DNA of 64,000 bases from Candidatus Binatia bacterium (lineage in GTDB: Bacteria > Eisenbacteria > RBG-16-71-46 > SZUA-252): assembly GCA_035631035.1 (NCBI GenBank), contig DASQJL010000096.1:1234-65233 (forward strand), in the 5' to 3' direction. The notes under the pieces were generated by a model, which searched no databases, was not told the DNA's origin, and saw nothing but the letters and a program-made list of their open reading frames with translations. The position numbers were made by a program, and so were the translations under genes. How positions within the stretch are numbered: position 1 is the stretch's first letter; each line of letters starts with the position of its first letter. Shown here in pieces: positions 51,618 to 57,625 of this stretch.

Positions 51618-51821
51618 TCAGACCGGAGTCACGTTGGCGGCCTGCTTTCCCTTGGGCCCCTCCACGATCTCGAACTCCACCACCTGCCCCTCGGACAGGG
51701 TCTTGAAGCCCTCACCCTGGATCGCCGAGTAGTGGACGAAGACGTCCTCGCCGCCGGCCTGCTGGATGAATCCGAATCCCTTGGCCTCGTTGAACCACTT
51801 CACCGTTCCCCGCTTGCGCAT
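51618..51821 (-). CDS. Cold-shock protein (CspA family)
   Basis: 67 aa. RNP1 KGFGFI and RNP2 VFVHYS. Confidence 0.95.
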
Positions 51822-52113
51822 CGAGCGTTCACCTCCCTCCGAGGGACGCGGAAGCGCCCCTTGCGCCGCGCCGAATACGCCAGGAGCCGTCGCGGGGCAC
51901 AGCCGTATCCCCCCGCGACGGCTCCGGACCGTCGGCCAGCCTAGTCGTCTTCGGTGCGTCCTTCGGATTTCGCTTCAGCGTTCGTGCACCGGGTCGTGCT
52001 TTGAATCGTGCCGCGTGCCAGCGCTGAAGCCGGATGACGAGTGCGAGGCAACACTGATGCAGGATTTCAAAGCGTTGTCCTGCCGGGCCGCGCCAAGGGC
52101 CCGGACGCGACGG

Positions 52114-52142
52114 ACCGTAGACCCGCCCTCCGGGGCTGTCAA
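52114..52142 (-). promoter_or_regulatory. Candidate promoter of the csp gene (long 5' UTR)
   Basis: The minus strand reads TTGACA, a 17-nt spacer, then TACGGT. This implies a ~285-nt leader. Confidence 0.35.
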
Positions 52143-52198
52143 ACCGAAAGTTTCGACTTCGAGCGGACCCACCGGCGCGCGCGTATCGCGATGCGTCT

Positions 52199-53893
52199 TC
52201 AACGCGTCTGGAGGGAGCGCAGACCGCGGGCGGCGCCCTCCCACGCGATGCGCCCGTCGGTGCGGAACTGGTAGCGCGGATGGCGGCGCAGGAAGGAAAC
52301 CGCGGCCTCGTTCTGGAAGACCCCCGTGGGTTCTGCGGGACCCGCCTTCCGGAAGAGGGTATAGCCGGCGCCCCCTTCGTAGAGGAAGTCGATCGTGGCG
52401 ACCCGGTAGATGCGGTCGTCGTCGAGCGGATGGCCGTTCACGCGGATGTCCGACGCGTAGTCGCCGCTGATCGAGAACCGCACGCCGCTCACCTGGGCGA
52501 AGTCGCTCTTGCCCAGGCGCCGCGCCGCGAAATCCAGGAGCCGCCGGAGGTCGTCGCCGCGCATCGGCACGACGACGATCGTGTTGTCGAAGGGGAACGT
52601 GGAGTAGACGTCCGCCACGGTGACCGGCCCCCGCGGAATCGGAGCGCGGATCCCGCCCGTGTTCATGATGCCGACCTCGGCGCCCGCCGTCTCGCGAAGG
52701 ACCTCGGCCGCGAAGTTCCCGATCGCGGTCTCCACGTCGTCGCGCTGCGGGGTCGGCACCCGCACGCTCGATTCGTACACCGTGGCCCCCATCGCCACGG
52801 TCACCGAGTCGGCCACCGGCCGGAGGAGCGCCGCGATTGTGGAATCCTCGCCATCCTGGGGCCGCACCCGCAGGAGCTCGTAGGAGAACCCGGCGGGCCG
52901 CCCCTGGGCGAGGTAGAGGACGCTTCGTCCGACACGATCGCCCCAGGCCCCGGTCTGCACGATCGGCACGCCCGCGAGTCCGGGAGCCGTTCCGTTCCCG
53001 GCGAAGAGCGGCTCGTCGAGGCGCGTGTGGCTGTGCCCCCCCACGATGAGGTCGATGCCGGGGACGCGCCGCGCGAGCTCCTGGTCGGCGTCCACGCCGA
53101 GGTGCGTCAGGGCGATCACGTAGTCCGCCTGCCCGCGAAGGAGGGGCACGAACCATCGCGCGGCCTCGATCGGATCGGAGACGGCGACGCCCCGGTTGGC
53201 GCTGATGCGCACGATGTTGACGAGGCTCCCCGTGGTGAGGCCGAGGATCGCGATCCGCTTCCCGCGCCACGAGCGGATGAGGTAGGGCTTGGCCAGGAAC
53301 CGGAGCGACGCCGTGCTCGACACGGGCGCGCCCCCGATCCAGCGCGCGCCCCGGCGGACCTCGGGGGGCGGAGCGTCTCCCAGGCTCGACGCCCAGCTGC
53401 TGTCCGCCGCGGCGAACACGTTCGCGCTCAGGACCGGATACTCGGCGAGCGGGCGCAGGGCGAGCCACGCCGCGGGGCCGTCGTCGAGGTCGTGATTGCC
53501 GAGGGCGACCGCGTCGTAGCGCATTGCGGACATCGCGCGGGTGTCGGGGACGCCGCGGAACAGGTTATAGGCGGGCGTCCCCTGGACGATGTCGCCCGCG
53601 TCCAGCAGGAGCAGGTCCGGGTCGCGCATCCGCTCGCGCTCGATCAGCGCCGCGCGCGCGGCCGCTCCGCCGACCAGCGTCGCCTCGCTGCGATGGAAGG
53701 GGAGCAGATGGGAGTGCACGTCGTTCGAATGGAGCACGACGAGCGAGTCCGCGATGGGGCGCGGGGGGGATTCCGGCAAGGCCGCGCCCGGCGCTGCCGC
53801 GGCAATCAGGGCCGCGGCGGTCAGCGCAAACCCGAAAATTAAGCAGCGATACGGAGTTCCGGCTGCGGGCAAACGCCTCAAATGGCTTGACAC
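52199..53893 (-). CDS. Bifunctional metallophosphatase/5'-nucleotidase (UshA-like), secreted
   Basis: LHSNDVHSH, DAGDIVQG, GNHDLD and GGHSHT, followed by a C-terminal 5'-nucleotidase domain. Confidence 0.88.
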   Translation of the reverse strand: MSSHLRRLPAAGTPYRCLIFGFALTAAALIAAAAPGAALPESPPRPIADSLVVLHSNDVHSHLLPFHRSEATLVGGAAARAALIERERMRDPDLLLLDAGDIVQGTPAYNLFRGVPDTRAMSAMRYDAVALGNHDLDDGPAAWLALRPLAEYPVLSANVFAAADSSWASSLGDAPPPEVRRGARWIGGAPVSSTASLRFLAKPYLIRSWRGKRIAILGLTTGSLVNIVRISANRGVAVSDPIEAARWFVPLLRGQADYVIALTHLGVDADQELARRVPGIDLIVGGHSHTRLDEPLFAGNGTAPGLAGVPIVQTGAWGDRVGRSVLYLAQGRPAGFSYELLRVRPQDGEDSTIAALLRPVADSVTVAMGATVYESSVRVPTPQRDDVETAIGNFAAEVLRETAGAEVGIMNTGGIRAPIPRGPVTVADVYSTFPFDNTIVVVPMRGDDLRRLLDFAARRLGKSDFAQVSGVRFSISGDYASDIRVNGHPLDDDRIYRVATIDFLYEGGAGYTLFRKAGPAEPTGVFQNEAAVSFLRRHPRYQFRTDGRIAWEGAARGLRSLQTR

Positions 53894-53915
53894 AAGTCGC
53901 GCCTCTCCCTATAGT
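53887..53915 (+). promoter_or_regulatory. Strong sigma70-type promoter
   Basis: TTGACA (53887-53892), a 17-nt spacer, then TATAGT (53910-53915). Confidence 0.6.
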
Positions 53916-53921
53916 TACAGT

Positions 53922-54078
53922 TGGCAAGGCTCAGTCGGTCCGTGCTCGGCGGAGTATCGGCAGCTACGAGTGACAATGCAGTCATCTCCCCAACTCCCGT
54001 CATGCTTCCGTACGCCAAAAGCCCACGGTTCCCGCAGGAGGCCCCCACGGTACTCACCCGGTGGGGGCGTTTTTGTTT
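53922..54078 (+). ncRNA. Candidate ~155-nt leader RNA / small RNA bounded by a promoter and an intrinsic terminator, upstream of the zinc-ribbon/csp operon
   Basis: It lies between the promoter above and the terminator at 54041-54078. No convincing ORF. Locally lower GC. I recognised no RNA family. Confidence 0.4.
54041..54078 (+). terminator. Intrinsic terminator/attenuator inside the 5' region of the zinc-ribbon/csp operon
   Basis: gcccccacgg-tactcac-ccggtgggggc followed by gtttttgttt. The RBS GGAGG and ATG 54110 follow 30 nt later. Confidence 0.65.
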
Positions 54079-54109
54079 CATCCAGCAGTGAGTGCGTCTC
54101 GGAGGCTTC

Positions 54110-54436
54110 ATGGCTGACGTGGACAAGGTAATCAAATGTCGCGACTGTGGTGAAGAGTTCGTCTTCACGGTTGGGGAGCAGAACTTCTACAAGGATCGTG
54201 GCTTTCAGCACGAACCCACGCGGTGCCGCCGCTGCCGGGACGAGAAGAAGCGCGCCTCCGGCGGTCCGGTATCGGCTGCCCCGGTGTCGAACGCGGCCCC
54301 TCGGGAGTTCCACGAGGCCGTCTGCTCGTCCTGCGGCCAGATGACGCAGGTTCCATTCCGTCCCACCCCGGGAAAGCCGGTATACTGCAGGGACTGCTTT
54401 CAGAACGTCCGGTCCACGCGAGGCATGAACGTCTAG
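54110..54436 (+). CDS. Zinc-ribbon protein (two CxxC...CxxC units; zf-trcl-like)
   Basis: Trimmed to ATG 54110 (GGAGG 4 nt upstream). [34 protein letters not shown] and CSSCGQ...YCRDCF. Confidence 0.8.
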
Positions 54437-54506
54437 GCGAACGACCTTTCACCCACGTCATACCCTCATCCCGATCGTTTTCACGCCGAAAGGAGGGGCC
54501 CCGAAC

Positions 54507-54719
54507 TTGAGACACCGCGGCTCAGTCAAGTGGTTCAGCGAGTCCAAGGGTTACGGGTTCATTCAGGAGGATTCGGGAGAAGAGTTCTTCGTCCATCATT
54601 CCGCGATCGTCGCCGACGGCTTCCGCACGCTGAACGAGGGAGAGGTCGTCGAGTTCGACCCGACGGAGGATCAGAACCGAGGCAAGCAGGCCACCAACGT
54701 GGTCCGCGTGCAGCACTAG
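54507..54719 (+). CDS. Cold-shock protein (CspA family), TTG start
   Basis: 70 aa. RNP1 KGYGFI and RNP2 FFVHHS. AGGAGG lies 10 nt upstream. Confidence 0.9.
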
Positions 54720-54763
54720 AAGGCCGGCGGGGGAAGCCCCGCCGCACGACGACGATGGTCCAG

Positions 54764-54797
54764 GACCCCGGCGCGCTCCCGCCGGGGTTCGTTTTTT
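54764..54797 (+). terminator. Rho-independent terminator of the zinc-ribbon/csp operon
   Basis: gaccccggcg-cgctc-cgccggggtt followed by cgttttttgg. Confidence 0.7.
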
Positions 54798-54859
54798 GGC
54801 GCGGATAGAGTAGAGTTTTCGGGTACCCCCAACCATCTCGCCGGAGGATTCGAAACCGA

Positions 54860-57625
54860 ATGCGCTTTGCTCCCATCGCCCTGACCACGGCTGCCGTCCT
54901 GATCGCGACCGCCGCCCTGGGACCCGCCGGTCCCGCCGTCGCCGCGCCGAACCTGATCCGCACCCTTCCCAACAAGATGACGGTCATCGTCCGGGAGAAC
55001 CGTTCGCGCCCGCTCGCCACGGTCCAGGTCTGGATCGACGCGGGAAGCCGCGACGAGACCCGCAGCGAGCGGGGGGCCGCCTCGGTGCTCTCGTATCTTC
55101 CGTACGAGGAGACCTCCGCCCGGAAGCGCGGCGAAGTCCACAAGGAAGCGGAGTCCTTCGGCGGCACCCTGGGAAGCGAGTCGGGCTACTCCAGCATCAT
55201 CTACAACATGACGGTGCCCGCGCGGTACCTGAGCCGGGCGGTCGATATCCTGAGCGACGCCGTCCTCCATCCCTCCTTCAACCAGTACACGCTGGAGCAG
55301 TCGGTGGCCAAGGCGCGCCGGGAGTCCCGCGGCGTCCTGAGCGCGGCCGGCGGCGTCAGCCTGAACACGCTCCGGGAGTCGCTCTACGGCGACACGCCTC
55401 CCGGGACGCCGCTCCATGCGCCCGAGCTGGAGGTGGCGGCGCTCACGCTCCCGATCGTCCAGCGCTACTACAAGGAGAACTTCGTCGCCGACAGGATCAC
55501 GGTGGTCGTGGTCGGCGACATCGAGGCCGAACCCGTGGCCGATCAGATCGCGGCGGCCTTCAAGGACGTGCCCACCGGCAAGTCGCGCCCGCACCCGCGC
55601 GTCGCCCCGCCCAAGGAGCTCAAGGATCCCATCGTGCGCTCGGTGCCCAACCCGCCCGACGCCGACGGCTCGGTCGTGGCCGCGGGATTCCGCGCACCGC
55701 TCTGGGGCACCGCCGACGCAACCGCGCTCGACGTCCTGCTCGCCGTGCTCGTCGACGCTCCCGGCTCGCGGCTCGAGCGCCGGCTGCGCGAGGGGGGCAA
55801 CGACTTCGGAGCGGCCGCGGCCCAGCGCTCGTTCGGACCCGATCCGGGGTCGGTGGCCCTGGTCCTCTCGGCAGACCCCGCGCGGATGCCCGATGCGGAG
55901 GGGATCCTGGTTCAGGAGATCGAGAAGATTCGCGCGCAGCCGGTCACGGCCGAGGAGTGCCAGGCCGCCATCCGCTCCATTCTCACGCGCGAGCTGATGT
56001 CGCGCTCGGAGCTCTGGGGACTGGGGCGCGCCACCGCGCTCGCCTATTACCAGGGGCGTCCCGGCGCCGACGAGGTGTACGCGCAGCGCGTGAGCGCGGT
56101 GCGGCCCGAGGACCTGTCCGGAGTCGCGCGCAAGTATCTCGACTGGAAGAACGGCGCCGTCGTCGAGATGATGTCTCGGCGCACGGCCGACAGCCTCGGC
56201 ATCGCCAAGGAGTTCCCGAAACGGTTCCAGGAGAAGCTCTCGCTGTACCAGGGCACCTACCGCAGCGGCCCGCTCGCCACGGCGAGCACCGATGAGGAGC
56301 GCCGCGCGCGCATCGACCAGCCGCTCGCTTCGATCTCCCGGGATCCCTTCGATGCGGGGCGCGGCCGCGTGGAGCGCGCCAGGCTCGCGGGCGGCATCCG
56401 GCTCCTGACCGGCCAGGACCGAAGCGCCCCCGGCGTGACGGTGGCGGTCTATCTGAACGGCGGCGTGCGCTGGGAGAACGACAAGAACAACGGCATCACC
56501 TCGCTCGTCCGCGAGACGCTCTTCAATACGAACGACCCCAAGCGGAACGGCCTCGCCTACCGGCAGTCGCTCTCCCTCCTGGGATCGTTCACGCCCTACC
56601 AGGATCGGGACATGTGGGGGGTCTCGCTCGCGGTGCCCTCGTCCGACTGGAAGGAAGCGCTCAACCGGATCGGCGCGATGATGTCCCACCCGGACCTGGA
56701 CTCGGTGACGGTGGATGCCACGCGGATCCTGCTCCTCACCGCCCTCGACAAGTGGATGGAAGACGACGCGGCCCAGCGGCAGCGGCTCATCTTCGCGACG
56801 AAGTACCAGGTGAGCGGCTACCGGCTTCCCGGCGTGGGGAACAAGGTGAACCTCATCTCGCTTCCGACGTCGGCGATCGCGGCCTATTACCGGAAGTTCG
56901 TGGTGAAGCCGAACCTGTTCGTCGCGGTCTTCGGCGACGTGAACCCCTCCGAGGTCGGTCCCGCGGTGGAGGAGGCGTTCCGCGACGTGAGCGCGGGACC
57001 CTTCAACCCGGGCGAGCCGCCCATGGATCTGCCGTTCCCCGGCTTCCGCGAGAAGTGGGAGCTGGGCGCGGGCTCGCTCACCACCATTCAGCTCGCCTTC
57101 AACGGCCCCCCGGCAAACAGCCCGGACATGCCCATTTTCTACGTCGTGAACTCGCTGCTCTCGGGACCGTACGGCTGGTTCCAGAAGTACGTCATGGCCG
57201 AGCCGACGGCGCAGAGCGCGAACTCGATCGTGGCGCAGGCGATCGACGAGTCTCCGATCATCGCCTCGCTCACCATCGGCGGCTCGGTGGAGGAGGAGGC
57301 GATGGTCAAGCTGCTCTTCCGGCAGTTCAAGAAGGTCGCCGGGATGGAGCTGATCGGCCCCGATCTGGATCAGGACCTCCGGAACGCGAAGACGCACGCC
57401 ATCGGCAGCTTCTACGGAACGTTCACGACGAATACGTCCCGCGCCTTCCAGTGGGCTCGCGCCGACCTGTTCGGGCTTCCGCCCGACGACCTGCTGGCGC
57501 TCCCCTCCAAGATGGACGCGGTGACTCCGGGCGATCTCCTGCGGGTCGGGACGCGCTACTTCCAGCGCGGAGACTGGGAGAAGGCGCCGTACGCCATCGC
57601 GGAGACGCGGCCCGGCGGCTGGTAG
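54860..57625 (+). CDS. Fused double-M16-fold protein lacking the HxxEH zinc motif in both halves (probably non-catalytic)
   Basis: 921 aa with a signal peptide. M16 topology: IDAGSRDE...FGGTLGSESGYSS. SVLSY and SLVRE occupy the positions where HxxEH is expected. Confidence 0.8.
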   Translation: MRFAPIALTTAAVLIATAALGPAGPAVAAPNLIRTLPNKMTVIVRENRSRPLATVQVWIDAGSRDETRSERGAASVLSYLPYEETSARKRGEVHKEAESFGGTLGSESGYSSIIYNMTVPARYLSRAVDILSDAVLHPSFNQYTLEQSVAKARRESRGVLSAAGGVSLNTLRESLYGDTPPGTPLHAPELEVAALTLPIVQRYYKENFVADRITVVVVGDIEAEPVADQIAAAFKDVPTGKSRPHPRVAPPKELKDPIVRSVPNPPDADGSVVAAGFRAPLWGTADATALDVLLAVLVDAPGSRLERRLREGGNDFGAAAAQRSFGPDPGSVALVLSADPARMPDAEGILVQEIEKIRAQPVTAEECQAAIRSILTRELMSRSELWGLGRATALAYYQGRPGADEVYAQRVSAVRPEDLSGVARKYLDWKNGAVVEMMSRRTADSLGIAKEFPKRFQEKLSLYQGTYRSGPLATASTDEERRARIDQPLASISRDPFDAGRGRVERARLAGGIRLLTGQDRSAPGVTVAVYLNGGVRWENDKNNGITSLVRETLFNTNDPKRNGLAYRQSLSLLGSFTPYQDRDMWGVSLAVPSSDWKEALNRIGAMMSHPDLDSVTVDATRILLLTALDKWMEDDAAQRQRLIFATKYQVSGYRLPGVGNKVNLISLPTSAIAAYYRKFVVKPNLFVAVFGDVNPSEVGPAVEEAFRDVSAGPFNPGEPPMDLPFPGFREKWELGAGSLTTIQLAFNGPPANSPDMPIFYVVNSLLSGPYGWFQKYVMAEPTAQSANSIVAQAIDESPIIASLTIGGSVEEEAMVKLLFRQFKKVAGMELIGPDLDQDLRNAKTHAIGSFYGTFTTNTSRAFQWARADLFGLPPDDLLALPSKMDAVTPGDLLRVGTRYFQRGDWEKAPYAIAETRPGGW

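Follow-up and report, generated by a model that had tools for sequence, protein, structure and literature searches.

CspA, CspC and CspE of Escherichia coli antiterminate transcription at rho-independent terminators. The E. coli cspA, cspG and cspI mRNAs carry two-state thermometers in their 5′-UTRs, and switches of this kind are reshaped by Csp chaperones (PMC13271884, PMC9947658), proteins whose binding sites are YYR or U-rich motifs (PMC9947658). Leaders of csp mRNAs have been well studied in a few bacteria, mainly enterobacteria. The leader described here is a new RNA motif within this known class, and a solution unrelated to those studied so far; it belongs to the Eisenbacteria, a soil phylum without cultured members that to our knowledge is known solely from metagenome-assembled genomes.

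The leader lies in a 64-kb stretch of DNA, which we analysed whole and call the window; positions count from its first letter, and all features are on the forward (+) strand. Like the E. coli cspA family of thermometers (cspA, RF01766; cspG; cspI), the locus combines a strong promoter with a long (~160-200 nt), structured csp-mRNA leader, in which the Shine-Dalgarno sequence (SD) can enter alternative long-range pairings and for which Csp proteins are plausible remodellers in trans (PMC13271884, PMC9947658). In contrast to that family, to which it has no sequence or structure similarity (cmscan, E ≤ 10), it belongs to an operon of the Eisenbacteria whose first gene encodes a zinc-ribbon protein rather than a Csp, and it has a hairpin that resembles a terminator, a U-tract after this hairpin, and a candidate pseudoknot between the hairpin loop and the segment preceding the SD.

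The order of its parts, from a promoter through a structured region of ~120 nt to a G+C-rich hairpin and U-tract tens of nucleotides before the SD, is also that of intrinsic-terminator attenuators, such as the protein-mediated L20 leader of Bacillus subtilis infC-rpmI-rplT (PMC1865079). The present leader differs from these in having no covarying antiterminator and in the predicted pairing of the terminator loop with downstream RNA, which is not a classical attenuator feature. With SD-occluding thermometers and H-type pseudoknots at ribosome-binding sites it shares a GGAGG complementary to a conserved CU-rich anti-SD, as well as a hairpin loop that pairs with a downstream strand. Classical RNA thermometers, however, open on warming, whereas a csp operon is expected to need the opposite logic, and the present leader differs from them further in its two candidate anti-SDs and several SD-like decoys.

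Promoter, operon and conservation of the leader

Positions 53887-54109 very probably comprise the promoter and the folded, cis-acting 5′ leader (~190 nt) of the zinc-ribbon/csp operon. The promoter (53887-53917) consists of TTGACA (−35, 53887-53892) and TATAGT (−10, 53910-53915) separated by 17 nt, and matches the consensus at 11 of 12 positions. It is the sole sigma-70-like site between 52000 and 57000, where 0.1 would be expected, and this interval held no other recognisable promoter for the operon. Among orthologs the −35 element lies within the invariant TTGACACAA and the −10 element is kept as TATAGTTA; in an alignment of 24 orthologs the former and much of the latter are invariant, and TTGAC[AT] occurs 200-270 nt 5′ of the ATG in each of the 73 loci with sufficient upstream sequence. 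Transcription would be expected to start near 53922. The G+C content is 55-62% in the leader and ~70-76% in neighbouring coding DNA.

The SD (GGAGG, 54101-54105) precedes the first gene (54110-54436), which encodes a 108-aa protein with two treble-clef zinc-ribbon domains (PF13451, 4.7e-21; PF23477, 2.7e-18; TIGR04272). The second gene (54507-54719) encodes a 70-aa cold-shock-domain protein (PF00313, 1.5e-23) that is CspE/CspC-like; its TTG start and its SD are conserved among orthologs. NCBIfam names CspE a 'transcription antiterminator', and a second Csp is encoded in the window at 51621-51824. An intrinsic terminator at 54763-54797 closes the operon. A sequence-only reading of this DNA had already named the promoter, the SD and ATG of the zinc-ribbon gene at 54110, the csp start at 54507 and a terminator beyond it, and each of these was recovered here.

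We collected 76 orthologous loci, all Eisenbacteria-like, which reduce to 63 distinct leaders. The leader stands directly 5′ of the same zinc-ribbon/csp gene pair in 76 of 76 loci; csp always comes after the zinc-ribbon gene in the 24 loci from Eisenbacteria genomes, and the same architecture was found in these 24 of 24 and in 52 of 54 metagenome pattern matches. Each of the 63 distinct leaders keeps the promoter, the hairpin and the T-rich tail, and the ribosome-binding site is conserved too. Because both genes sit behind the same leader in every locus, with predicted co-transcription, this widespread and uncharacterised treble-clef zinc-ribbon family appears tied to Csp biology, and the leader could serve as a marker motif for the annotation of Eisenbacteria genomes.

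A covariance model of the 3′ domain found one copy in the 64-kb window and no match upstream of zinc-ribbon genes at 56 loci of other phyla; its other matches were ordinary terminators only. The cmscan comparison with Rfam that the sequence-only reading had proposed returned no family, cspA (RF01766) included: the whole window held no match at the gathering thresholds of Rfam 15, and at E ≤ 10 the interval 53750-54900 gave chance matches only, the best within the leader being sR084 with 17.7 bits, where the gathering score is 95. The folding energy of the whole leader is ordinary relative to shuffled sequence (z = −0.22 for 158 nt, z = +0.17 for 204 nt). Thus, conservation and covariation, not predicted stability, set this leader apart. 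The papers we could search held nothing pertinent on the zinc-ribbon family, on cold shock in Eisenbacteria or on csp/zinc-ribbon operons.

The terminator-like hairpin and its loop

The G+C-rich hairpin with a T-tract that the sequence-only reading had placed before the zinc-ribbon gene is indeed present, as hairpin A (54041-54068, closed by G54041-C54068) followed by the tract TTTTTGTTTC (54070-54079). The stem (CCCCCAC/GTGGGGG plus GG/CC) has 8-10 pairs and a free energy of −19.9 kcal/mol when folded alone; its 5′ arm spans 54041-54050, its loop 54051-54057 and its 3′ arm 54058-54068. The same reading had asked whether such hairpins are conserved in orthologous leaders, and this one is: its positions are paired in 90.8-92.7% of cases, and four to five of the nine pairs show compensatory changes. 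None of 500 shuffles did as well, controls slid along the alignment reached 39-55% paired, and exchanging arms between orthologs gave 0 of 20000 permutations as good as the cognate arrangement.

With a G+C-rich stem of at least 5 bp, a short loop and an adjoining U-tract, hairpin A has the sequence features of an intrinsic terminator. It also resembles the operon's own 3′ terminator, which has a stem and tail of the same style, is the second-best match of the leader covariance model in the window (11.4 bits) and likewise has an interrupted tail, UUCGUUUUUU. The tract in the window holds 7 T in 8. Among the 63 orthologs it never falls below 4 T in 8 and reaches at least 5 in 49; the window and 11 other orthologs have a near-canonical tail (6-8 T in 8), and the remaining 51 of 63 have only 4-5. 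Because the U-tract is interrupted in most orthologs (UUCGUGUUUUC), termination may be weak or absent, and we put the chance that polymerase really terminates or pauses at hairpin A at about even. The tract may serve as the U-tract of a terminator, may make polymerase pause, or may offer Csp or ribosomal protein S1 a place to bind.

A terminator-based attenuator, the mechanism that the sequence-only reading preferred, is thus partly upheld: there is a cis leader with a conserved hairpin and T-rich tail, but no conserved antiterminator. The upstream segments we tried showed no pairing that covaries with either arm (17255 of 20000 permutations as good for the 5′ arm with the 3′ strand of P1, a hairpin described below; 7141 of 20000 for the 3′ arm). 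Among upstream segments, that same P1 strand pairs best with the 5′ arm, at −4 to −17 kcal/mol, which is weaker than hairpin A itself. A classical 1:2 / 2:3 / 3:4 attenuator built from the two P1 strands and the two hairpin arms was rejected on the same grounds, as it offers complementarity but no covariation. Without a conserved antiterminator, a classical switch made of RNA only is unsupported. A second candidate switch had been seen in the motif cccacgg, two copies of which were thought able to compete for the 3′ arm. The downstream copy is where it was reported (54044-54050) and the upstream one begins a nucleotide earlier (54022-54028, not 54023). This upstream copy occurs only in the window's closest relatives (L001, L006 and L008) and is absent from the ortholog alignments of other clades, and CCCACGG occurs 12 times in the window, where 18 would be expected; we therefore dropped the repeat as a switch.

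The loop of hairpin A contains a second conserved element. L (A-CUCACC, 54052-54058; consensus CTCRCC at 54053-54058) is complementary to L′ (AGUGAG-U, 54087-54093; consensus GGYGAG at 54087-54092), which lies 7 nt 5′ of the SD. In the window the pairs are A52-U93, C53-G92, U54-A91, C55-G90, A56-U89 and C57-G88 (last two digits of each position), and C58·A87 is mismatched. Across orthologs the six core pairs are paired in 98.4% of cases, with exchanges among A-U, G-C and G-U and no A·C. As a caveat, the pattern by which metagenome loci were fetched demanded CTCRCC and GYGRG; it nevertheless permitted the A·C combination that was never observed. The middle pair (alignment columns 17:61) is G-U in 25, A-U in 17 and G-C in 11 sequences with no mismatch, pair 19:59 is flipped from C-G to G-C in two orthologs (L005 and L007), and the seventh pair occurs as C-G, A-U, U-A, U-G and G-C. 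RNAalifold recovers this helix in three independent alignments. A local hairpin between L′ (GUGAG) and CUUCAU at the start codon, which appears in some minimum-free-energy (MFE) folds, was discarded, being broken by the GGCGAG and CUCCAUG variants.

The predicted pairing of the hairpin loop with the pre-SD segment is newly found, and would join RNA on both sides of the putative terminator. A loop that covaries with a 3′ strand, together with feasible loop geometry, points to an H-type pseudoknot: the hairpin loop has 7-9 nt of which 6-7 are paired, the first loop has 1-3 nt, and the linker crossing the first stem has 18-28 nt (up to 42 in one ortholog, L094). Hairpin A and the loop helix may coexist, or they may alternate, as in a fold (fold B) in which the 5′ arm of the hairpin is paired with the SD. 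It is unusual for a hairpin resembling a terminator to be wired in this way, through its loop, to the site of ribosome binding.

Predicted occlusion of the ribosome-binding site and proposed mechanism

The ribosome-binding site (54094-54109) consists of the pre-SD GCGUCU, the SD region CGGAGGC (54100-54106, with GGAGG invariant) and the spacer UUC, and is predicted to be occluded: the mean accessibility of the SD is 0.16 over full-length ortholog leaders and 0.03 in the window. One candidate partner is a central anti-SD (54004-54015), in which GCUUCCG (54004-54010) is complementary to CGGAGGC and ACGC (54012-54015) to GCGU (54094-54097). C54008 and C54009 are invariant in orthologs, the pairs are present in both the MFE and the centroid folds of the window, and the duplex has a free energy of −17.9 kcal/mol, with a comparable duplex in nearly every ortholog. 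The other candidate is the C-rich 5′ arm of hairpin A, which is also complementary to the SD (94.8% paired across orthologs). In swap tests on the 7 nt flanking the SD, 679 of 20000 permutations did as well as the cognate set for the central anti-SD and 342 of 20000 for the hairpin arm; the SD itself is invariant, and because it never varies, support for both partners is weak.

A GGAGG directly 5′ of hairpin A (54037-54041) resembles the SD and is conserved, as GGAG or GGAAG, only in the window's clade (seven-sequence alignment). As a decoy it might engage the C-rich anti-SD blocks; alternatively, its partner might be CUUC (54106-54109). In the fold of the 158-nt truncated RNA it is paired with CUCC (53994-53997).

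With a probability of roughly 0.6, we read the element as a composite cis leader, in which a leaky terminator or pause hairpin is combined with a pseudoknotted fold that occludes the SD. Polymerase starting near 53922 would meet hairpin A and the U-rich tract, which look like an ordinary intrinsic terminator in this organism, and some transcripts would probably end or pause there, giving an RNA of ~155 nt. Because the operon has no other promoter, its genes would be expressed from read-through transcripts only. In the read-through RNA the 20 nt before the start codon would be fully engaged, AGUGAG(U) (54087-54093) with the hairpin loop in an H-type pseudoknot, and GCGU plus the SD CGGAGGC (54094-54106) with the CU-rich anti-SD at 54004-54015 or with the C-rich hairpin 5′ arm, so that the ribosome-binding site would be closed by default and would have to be opened.

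The likeliest openers would be low temperature, Csp-type RNA chaperones or both; in the cold, a fold formed during transcription would persist as a trapped state, a mechanism proposed for E. coli cspA mRNA. That either is the signal remains a tentative suggestion, somewhat against the odds. Equilibrium folding showed no temperature-dependent opening of the SD (accessibility 0.16, 0.17 and 0.17 at 37, 25 and 10 °C), and a cold response would thus need kinetics or proteins. In common with Csp-mediated antitermination, the operon encodes a CspE/CspC-like protein and the hairpin is flanked by pyrimidine-rich single-stranded RNA, a putative Csp site type. Csp antitermination of its own operon would amount to a positive feedback loop, an uncommon arrangement, and the literature that could be searched does not describe, for the Eisenbacteria group, a csp operon that regulates itself through a terminator in its leader. 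The leader offers a compact, testable model for the coupling of termination or pausing with translation initiation in one RNA. A bolder version, which we regard as quite unlikely, is a dual-function terminator: the pre-SD strand of read-through transcripts would dock on its loop (a toehold), a single hairpin would thereby govern both premature termination and closure of the ribosome-binding site, and the abundant ~155-nt RNA, with its pyrimidine tracts and conserved single-stranded blocks, would titrate Csp or the zinc-ribbon protein of the operon, making an Eisenbacteria-specific homeostat for cold or RNA chaperones.

The composite reading has to be weighed against a purely translational leader, a thermosensor or chaperone switch in which hairpin A would be not a terminator but the first stem of a pseudoknot or a sequestor of a second anti-SD, the U-rich linker would pause polymerase or recruit Csp or S1, and regulation would rest wholly on SD accessibility. 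We consider this unlikely but deserving of attention. It accommodates the imperfect U-tract of 51 of 63 orthologs and the lack of an antiterminator, no long-range features are better conserved than the loop/pre-SD helix and the SD complementarity, and the E. coli cspA, cspG and cspI leaders act at translation (PMC13271884, PMC9947658). Against it stand the near-canonical tail of the window and 11 orthologs, the same interrupted tail style in the operon's true terminator, and T-richness kept right after the stem in every ortholog.

If the ~155-nt RNA were itself the product, it could pair with targets in trans or soak up Csp or other RNA-binding proteins like a sponge. Other bacteria are known to have riboswitch or leader RNAs that, once terminated, act in trans. 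An independent or dual-function sRNA of this kind would suit the strong promoter of its own, the terminator-like end and the conserved blocks at 53951-53983 that have no assigned partner, but we find it improbable. The element lies directly 5′ of zinc-ribbon/csp in 76 of 76 loci, with 31 nt between the tract and the ATG and hence no room for a separate operon promoter, and the 64-kb window contains a single copy of it, whereas the zinc-ribbon loci of other phyla gave none. Moreover, the hairpin loop covaries with RNA beyond the putative 3′ end, which argues that the element works at least partly in the read-through transcript. The preference of the sequence-only reading for a cis element is thereby strengthened, and the leader is most likely an undescribed cis-regulatory RNA rather than a free-standing small RNA.

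The 5′ part of the leader

Upstream of hairpin A, the hairpin P1 (UCCGU/GCGGA, 53939-53953; extended to ~53928-53965 in the MFE fold) is found in all clades with varying sequence. Swapping its halves between orthologs gave −8.56 ± 0.27 kcal/mol, compared with −9.40 kcal/mol for the cognate halves, and 29 of 20000 permutations were as low. The most conserved 5′ block in the alignments, GGAGUAUC-GGCAGCWACGAGUG..GCAGU (53951-53983), has the consensus GGCAGCAACGAGYGGAAYNCAGUG; the window is partly degenerate here, with GUGACAAU in place of GUGGAAU. Pairing of this block (GYGGAA) with the central UUCC, as an anti-anti-SD, is plausible in many clades but was set aside (2096 of 20000 in the swap test; −6.1 kcal/mol in the window). 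Two elements shape the middle of the leader in most clades: a closing helix, GUAGCA/UGCUAC, and a hairpin, AACGAG/CUCGUU, which by compensatory change is AACGAU/AUCGUU in L118 and L127.

This layout, from conserved 5′ blocks to a terminator-like hairpin and SD pairing, with a closing helix and hairpin in most clades, would also fit a metabolite or ion riboswitch in which the 5′ two-thirds form an aptamer and the hairpin and SD pairing the expression platform. We regard a riboswitch as very improbable, as no Rfam family was matched even at E ≤ 10, conservation of the central domain is poor and the window's clade has most of it replaced, no antiterminator overlaps the putative aptamer, and a csp and a zinc-ribbon gene suggest no ligand.

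The description of the ~155 nt as having no credible ORF holds, the one mechanical candidate being a 56-aa TTG ORF (53921-54091) that has no Pfam match and whose start, frame and length differ from ortholog to ortholog. Ribosome-mediated attenuation through a leader peptide such as this one can hardly be at work: open frames do cross the leader in most orthologs, many of them stopping at the TGA within GGTGAG, but start codon, start position, frame and length vary, GGCGAG, present in 11 of 53 distinct leaders, provides no stop codon, the lengths of indels are not divisible by three, and the candidate starts have no SD. Finally, an all-against-all scan of alignment columns for further covarying helices returned mostly pairings of C-runs with G-runs.

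Distribution and layout of the zinc-ribbon/csp leader

We sought relatives of this operon with the zinc-ribbon protein, one genome per species, and thus independently of the RNA sequence. The 24 loci found this way encode zinc-ribbon proteins that are 69-100% identical and are nearly all labelled Candidatus Eisenbacteria; in 24/24, csp lies 3′ of the zinc-ribbon gene and the leader lies 5′ of it, with a −35 element TTGACACAA and a −10 element TATAGTTA located ~220-245 nt before the ATG. A DNA pattern drawn from the leader's 3′ portion, which demanded CTCRCC and GYGRG yet permitted an A·C combination, matched 54 metagenome contigs, 52 of them true orthologs. Removing duplicates left 63 distinct leaders. 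No such leader was present at 56 zinc-ribbon loci checked in other phyla, and the motif occurs once in the 64-kb window. These comparisons of sequence establish the leader as a lineage-specific, conserved, cis-acting RNA of the operon, and we put the probability that it is a cis-regulatory leader at about 0.85.

In the window, the plus-strand promoter (TTGACA, 53887-53892; 17 nt; TATAGT, 53910-53915) has 11/12 matches and is the sole such site that a promoter scan found in 52000-57000 (0.1 expected). The RNA would start at ~53922, downstream of the −10 element, and the leader extends to 54109, including a Shine-Dalgarno sequence (SD; GGAGG, 54101-54105). On the same strand follow the zinc-ribbon gene (ATG at 54110, 31 nt past the T-tract of the leader; 108 aa, two treble-clef zinc-ribbon domains, PF13451, PF23477, TIGR04272), the csp gene (TTG start at 54507; 70 aa, cold-shock domain, PF00313) and a terminator (54763-54797). 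The sequence-only reading had located promoter, hairpin, genes and terminators correctly, except that the first of two cccacgg motifs begins at 54022, not 54023.

Seven loci with the same leader and a zinc-ribbon gene 70-100% identical to the Eisenbacteria ones (L004, L006, L007, L008, L009, L010, L023) carry the labels Limnocylindrales, Omnitrophota, Hyphomicrobiales, Bacteroidota, Binatia, Dormiibacterota and Acidobacteriota, and are probably mis-binned contigs in metagenome-assembled genomes. Outside Eisenbacteria, the Thermincola locus L026 (3001-3812) has a csp ~360 nt downstream of the zinc-ribbon gene, and the other 23 distant full-length loci (L025-L048) have none within 3 kb, which makes the pairing of the two genes chiefly an Eisenbacteria trait.

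The −35 9-mer TTGACACAA is invariant across all orthologs, more than the hexamer requires, and occurs once in the 64-kb window. A small palindrome, CTTG-ACA-CAAG (53886-53896), contains the hexamer, and A/T-rich CAAAT lies just upstream; judging from sequence, these could form an operator or a UP-like element. The upstream neighbour, a divergent 5′-nucleotidase ORF (52199-53893, minus strand), overlaps the −35 box, so its promoter must share DNA, on the opposite strand, with the promoter or leader of the csp operon; a TTG near 53872 is probably its true start. All 8 aligned orthologs keep both the TTG start of csp and the GAAAGGAGGGG before it unchanged, and the remainder of their 70-nt intergenic spacer (region 54437-54509) varies; this conserved non-ATG start may itself be regulatory.

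The terminator-like hairpin and its loop

By predicted stability, the leader is no different from shuffled sequence (z = −0.22 and +0.17), so any functional claim must rest on comparative evidence. Such evidence supports the GC-rich hairpin and T-tract noted in the sequence-only reading. The hairpin (G54041-C54068, plus strand) pairs CCCCCAC with GUGGGGG, plus GG with CC, and is directly followed by the T-rich tail UUUUUGUUUC (54070-54079). When 53 distinct 3′ domains were aligned with MAFFT, its nine stem pairs were 90.8% paired, a value matched by 0/500 shuffles (slid controls, 39-54%), and four changed on both sides (6:25 C-G/U-A, 8:22 G-C/A-U, 9:21 C-G/U-A, and 7:23). A covariance-model alignment gave 92.7% paired and five such pairs. 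Exchanging 3′ arms between orthologs cost 2.4 kcal/mol on average, and 0/20000 permutations equalled the cognate arms.

At least five T occur in the 8 nt past the stem in 49/63 orthologs (minimum 4; window 7); the tail is near-canonical in the window's clade, and the U-tract is interrupted in most other orthologs. The leader is 55-62% G+C, and the flanking coding DNA ~70-76%. The operon 3′ terminator shares this style of stem and tail and is the second-best match of the leader covariance model. Given the stem covariation, T-rich tail and this likeness, the hairpin resembles a normal intrinsic terminator for this organism. The stem of the operon 3′ terminator, CCCCGGCG/CGCCGGGG, is nearly the consensus leader stem; it scored 11.4 bits against the leader 3′-domain model, and the operon terminators at L087 3918-3988 and L110 7534-7604 each scored 21.3 bits.

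The hairpin loop, CUCRCC (54053-54058), is complementary to GGYGAG (54087-54092), whose 3′ end lies 7 nt short of the SD. RNAalifold found this helix in three different alignments, with its six core pairs 98.4% paired. The R:Y pair is G-U in 25 sequences, A-U in 17 and G-C in 11, and A·C in 0; the terminal C-G becomes G-C in L005 and L007, and a seventh pair, present in ~40% of sequences, takes five different forms. The geometry fits an H-type pseudoknot (loop of 7-9 nt, 6-7 paired; linker of 18-28 nt).

Predicted occlusion of the ribosome-binding site

In the window MFE and centroid folds, a CU-rich central block (54004-54015) would act as an anti-SD: GCUUCCG (54004-54010) pairs with CGGAGGC (54100-54106) and ACGC (54012-54015) with GCGU (54094-54097), with the hairpin nested inside. 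Throughout the family this block keeps its CC unchanged, and a similar duplex (−5.5 to −18.5 kcal/mol) exists in almost every ortholog, often with flanks that differ on both strands. In the alternative fold B, the SD pairs instead with the hairpin's C-rich 5′ arm (18 pairs in the window, GGAGGCCCCCACGGUACUCACC against AGUGAGUGCGUCUCGGAGGCUUC). Predicted thermodynamic ensembles prefer the hairpin in ~3/4 of orthologs, the window among them (0.93), and fold B in ~1/5. Swap tests of the 7 nt before the SD gave 679/20000 for the central block and 342/20000 for the hairpin 5′ arm; GGAGG itself never varies, so covariation cannot choose between these SD partners. Mean predicted SD accessibility was 0.16, unchanged from 37 to 10°C. 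The hairpin, loop helix and central pairing are mutually compatible in the models and jointly would lock all 20 nt of 54087-54106. Elsewhere in the leader, CUCCCGUCA (53993-54001) is complementary to zinc-ribbon codons 3-5 (UGACG-U-GGA, 54115-54123) and is paired with them in the window 204-nt MFE fold.

Candidate mechanisms and the 5′ part of the leader

Because the genes have no promoter of their own, expression requires passing the hairpin, and a terminator (or pause site) that is leaky or modulated by a factor is then the simplest reading. In read-through mRNA the pseudoknot and anti-SD would close the ribosome-binding site. From sequence features, we consider the odds of real termination or pausing at the hairpin to be even. 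E. coli cspA, cspG and cspI leaders are two-state thermometers whose co-transcriptional fold is kept in the cold and whose RNA is remodelled by Csp proteins (PMC13271884, PMC9947658). By analogy, low temperature and chaperones of the Csp type, among them the operon's own Csp, would be likely inputs; temperature or Csp as the signal is a tentative assignment. Structured csp leaders and attenuators are a known functional kind; the leader family, and a terminator loop wired to the pre-SD strand, are new, and our literature search found no mention of the leader in searchable papers.

A purely translational switch, in which SD pairing alone sets expression, seems unlikely. A trans-acting or dual-function sRNA is improbable: the loop can pair with the pre-SD strand only in transcripts that extend past the hairpin, so the element works in cis in read-through mRNA, as the sequence-only reading had preferred. 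We give very little weight to a riboswitch; the Rfam 15 search which that reading had proposed returned no family for the region, even at E ≤ 10. Least credible is a leader peptide, since no ORF is conserved among orthologous leaders; a 56-codon TTG ORF does span the window leader, yet it is unconserved, in keeping with the initial view that no credible ORF is present.

The switch first proposed, in which two cccacgg copies compete for the terminator 3′ arm, did not hold up: beyond the window's closest kin the pair of copies is not kept, and the window shows no enrichment of the heptamer. Among upstream segments, the G-rich strand on the 3′ side of P1, a hairpin at 53939-53953, pairs best with the hairpin 5′ arm, which gives a trp-like 1:2/2:3/3:4 layout; this candidate antiterminator showed no covariation (17255/20000) and was rejected as unsupported. 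P1 itself is supported by the swap test (29/20000). The 5′ two-thirds of the leader evolve fast, and contain a strongly conserved block, GGCAGCAACGAGYGGAAYNCAGUG, for which a pairing search yielded no proven partner. In most clades, a closing helix is present together with a hairpin from duplicated CAACGAG, and L118 and L127 show a compensatory AACGAU/AUCGUU; neither element occurs in the window's clade, which has an SD-like GGAGG (54037-54041) instead.

The window also holds a second csp (51621-51824, minus strand), 60% identical to the operon's Csp and preceded by a 377-nt non-coding stretch (to 52198, minus strand) with TTGACA at 52138-52143. Its leader folds far better than shuffled sequence (z = −3.16), with a ~15-bp perfect hairpin around 51893-51945 and a paired SD predicted, and probably represents a second structured csp leader, distinct from that of the operon.
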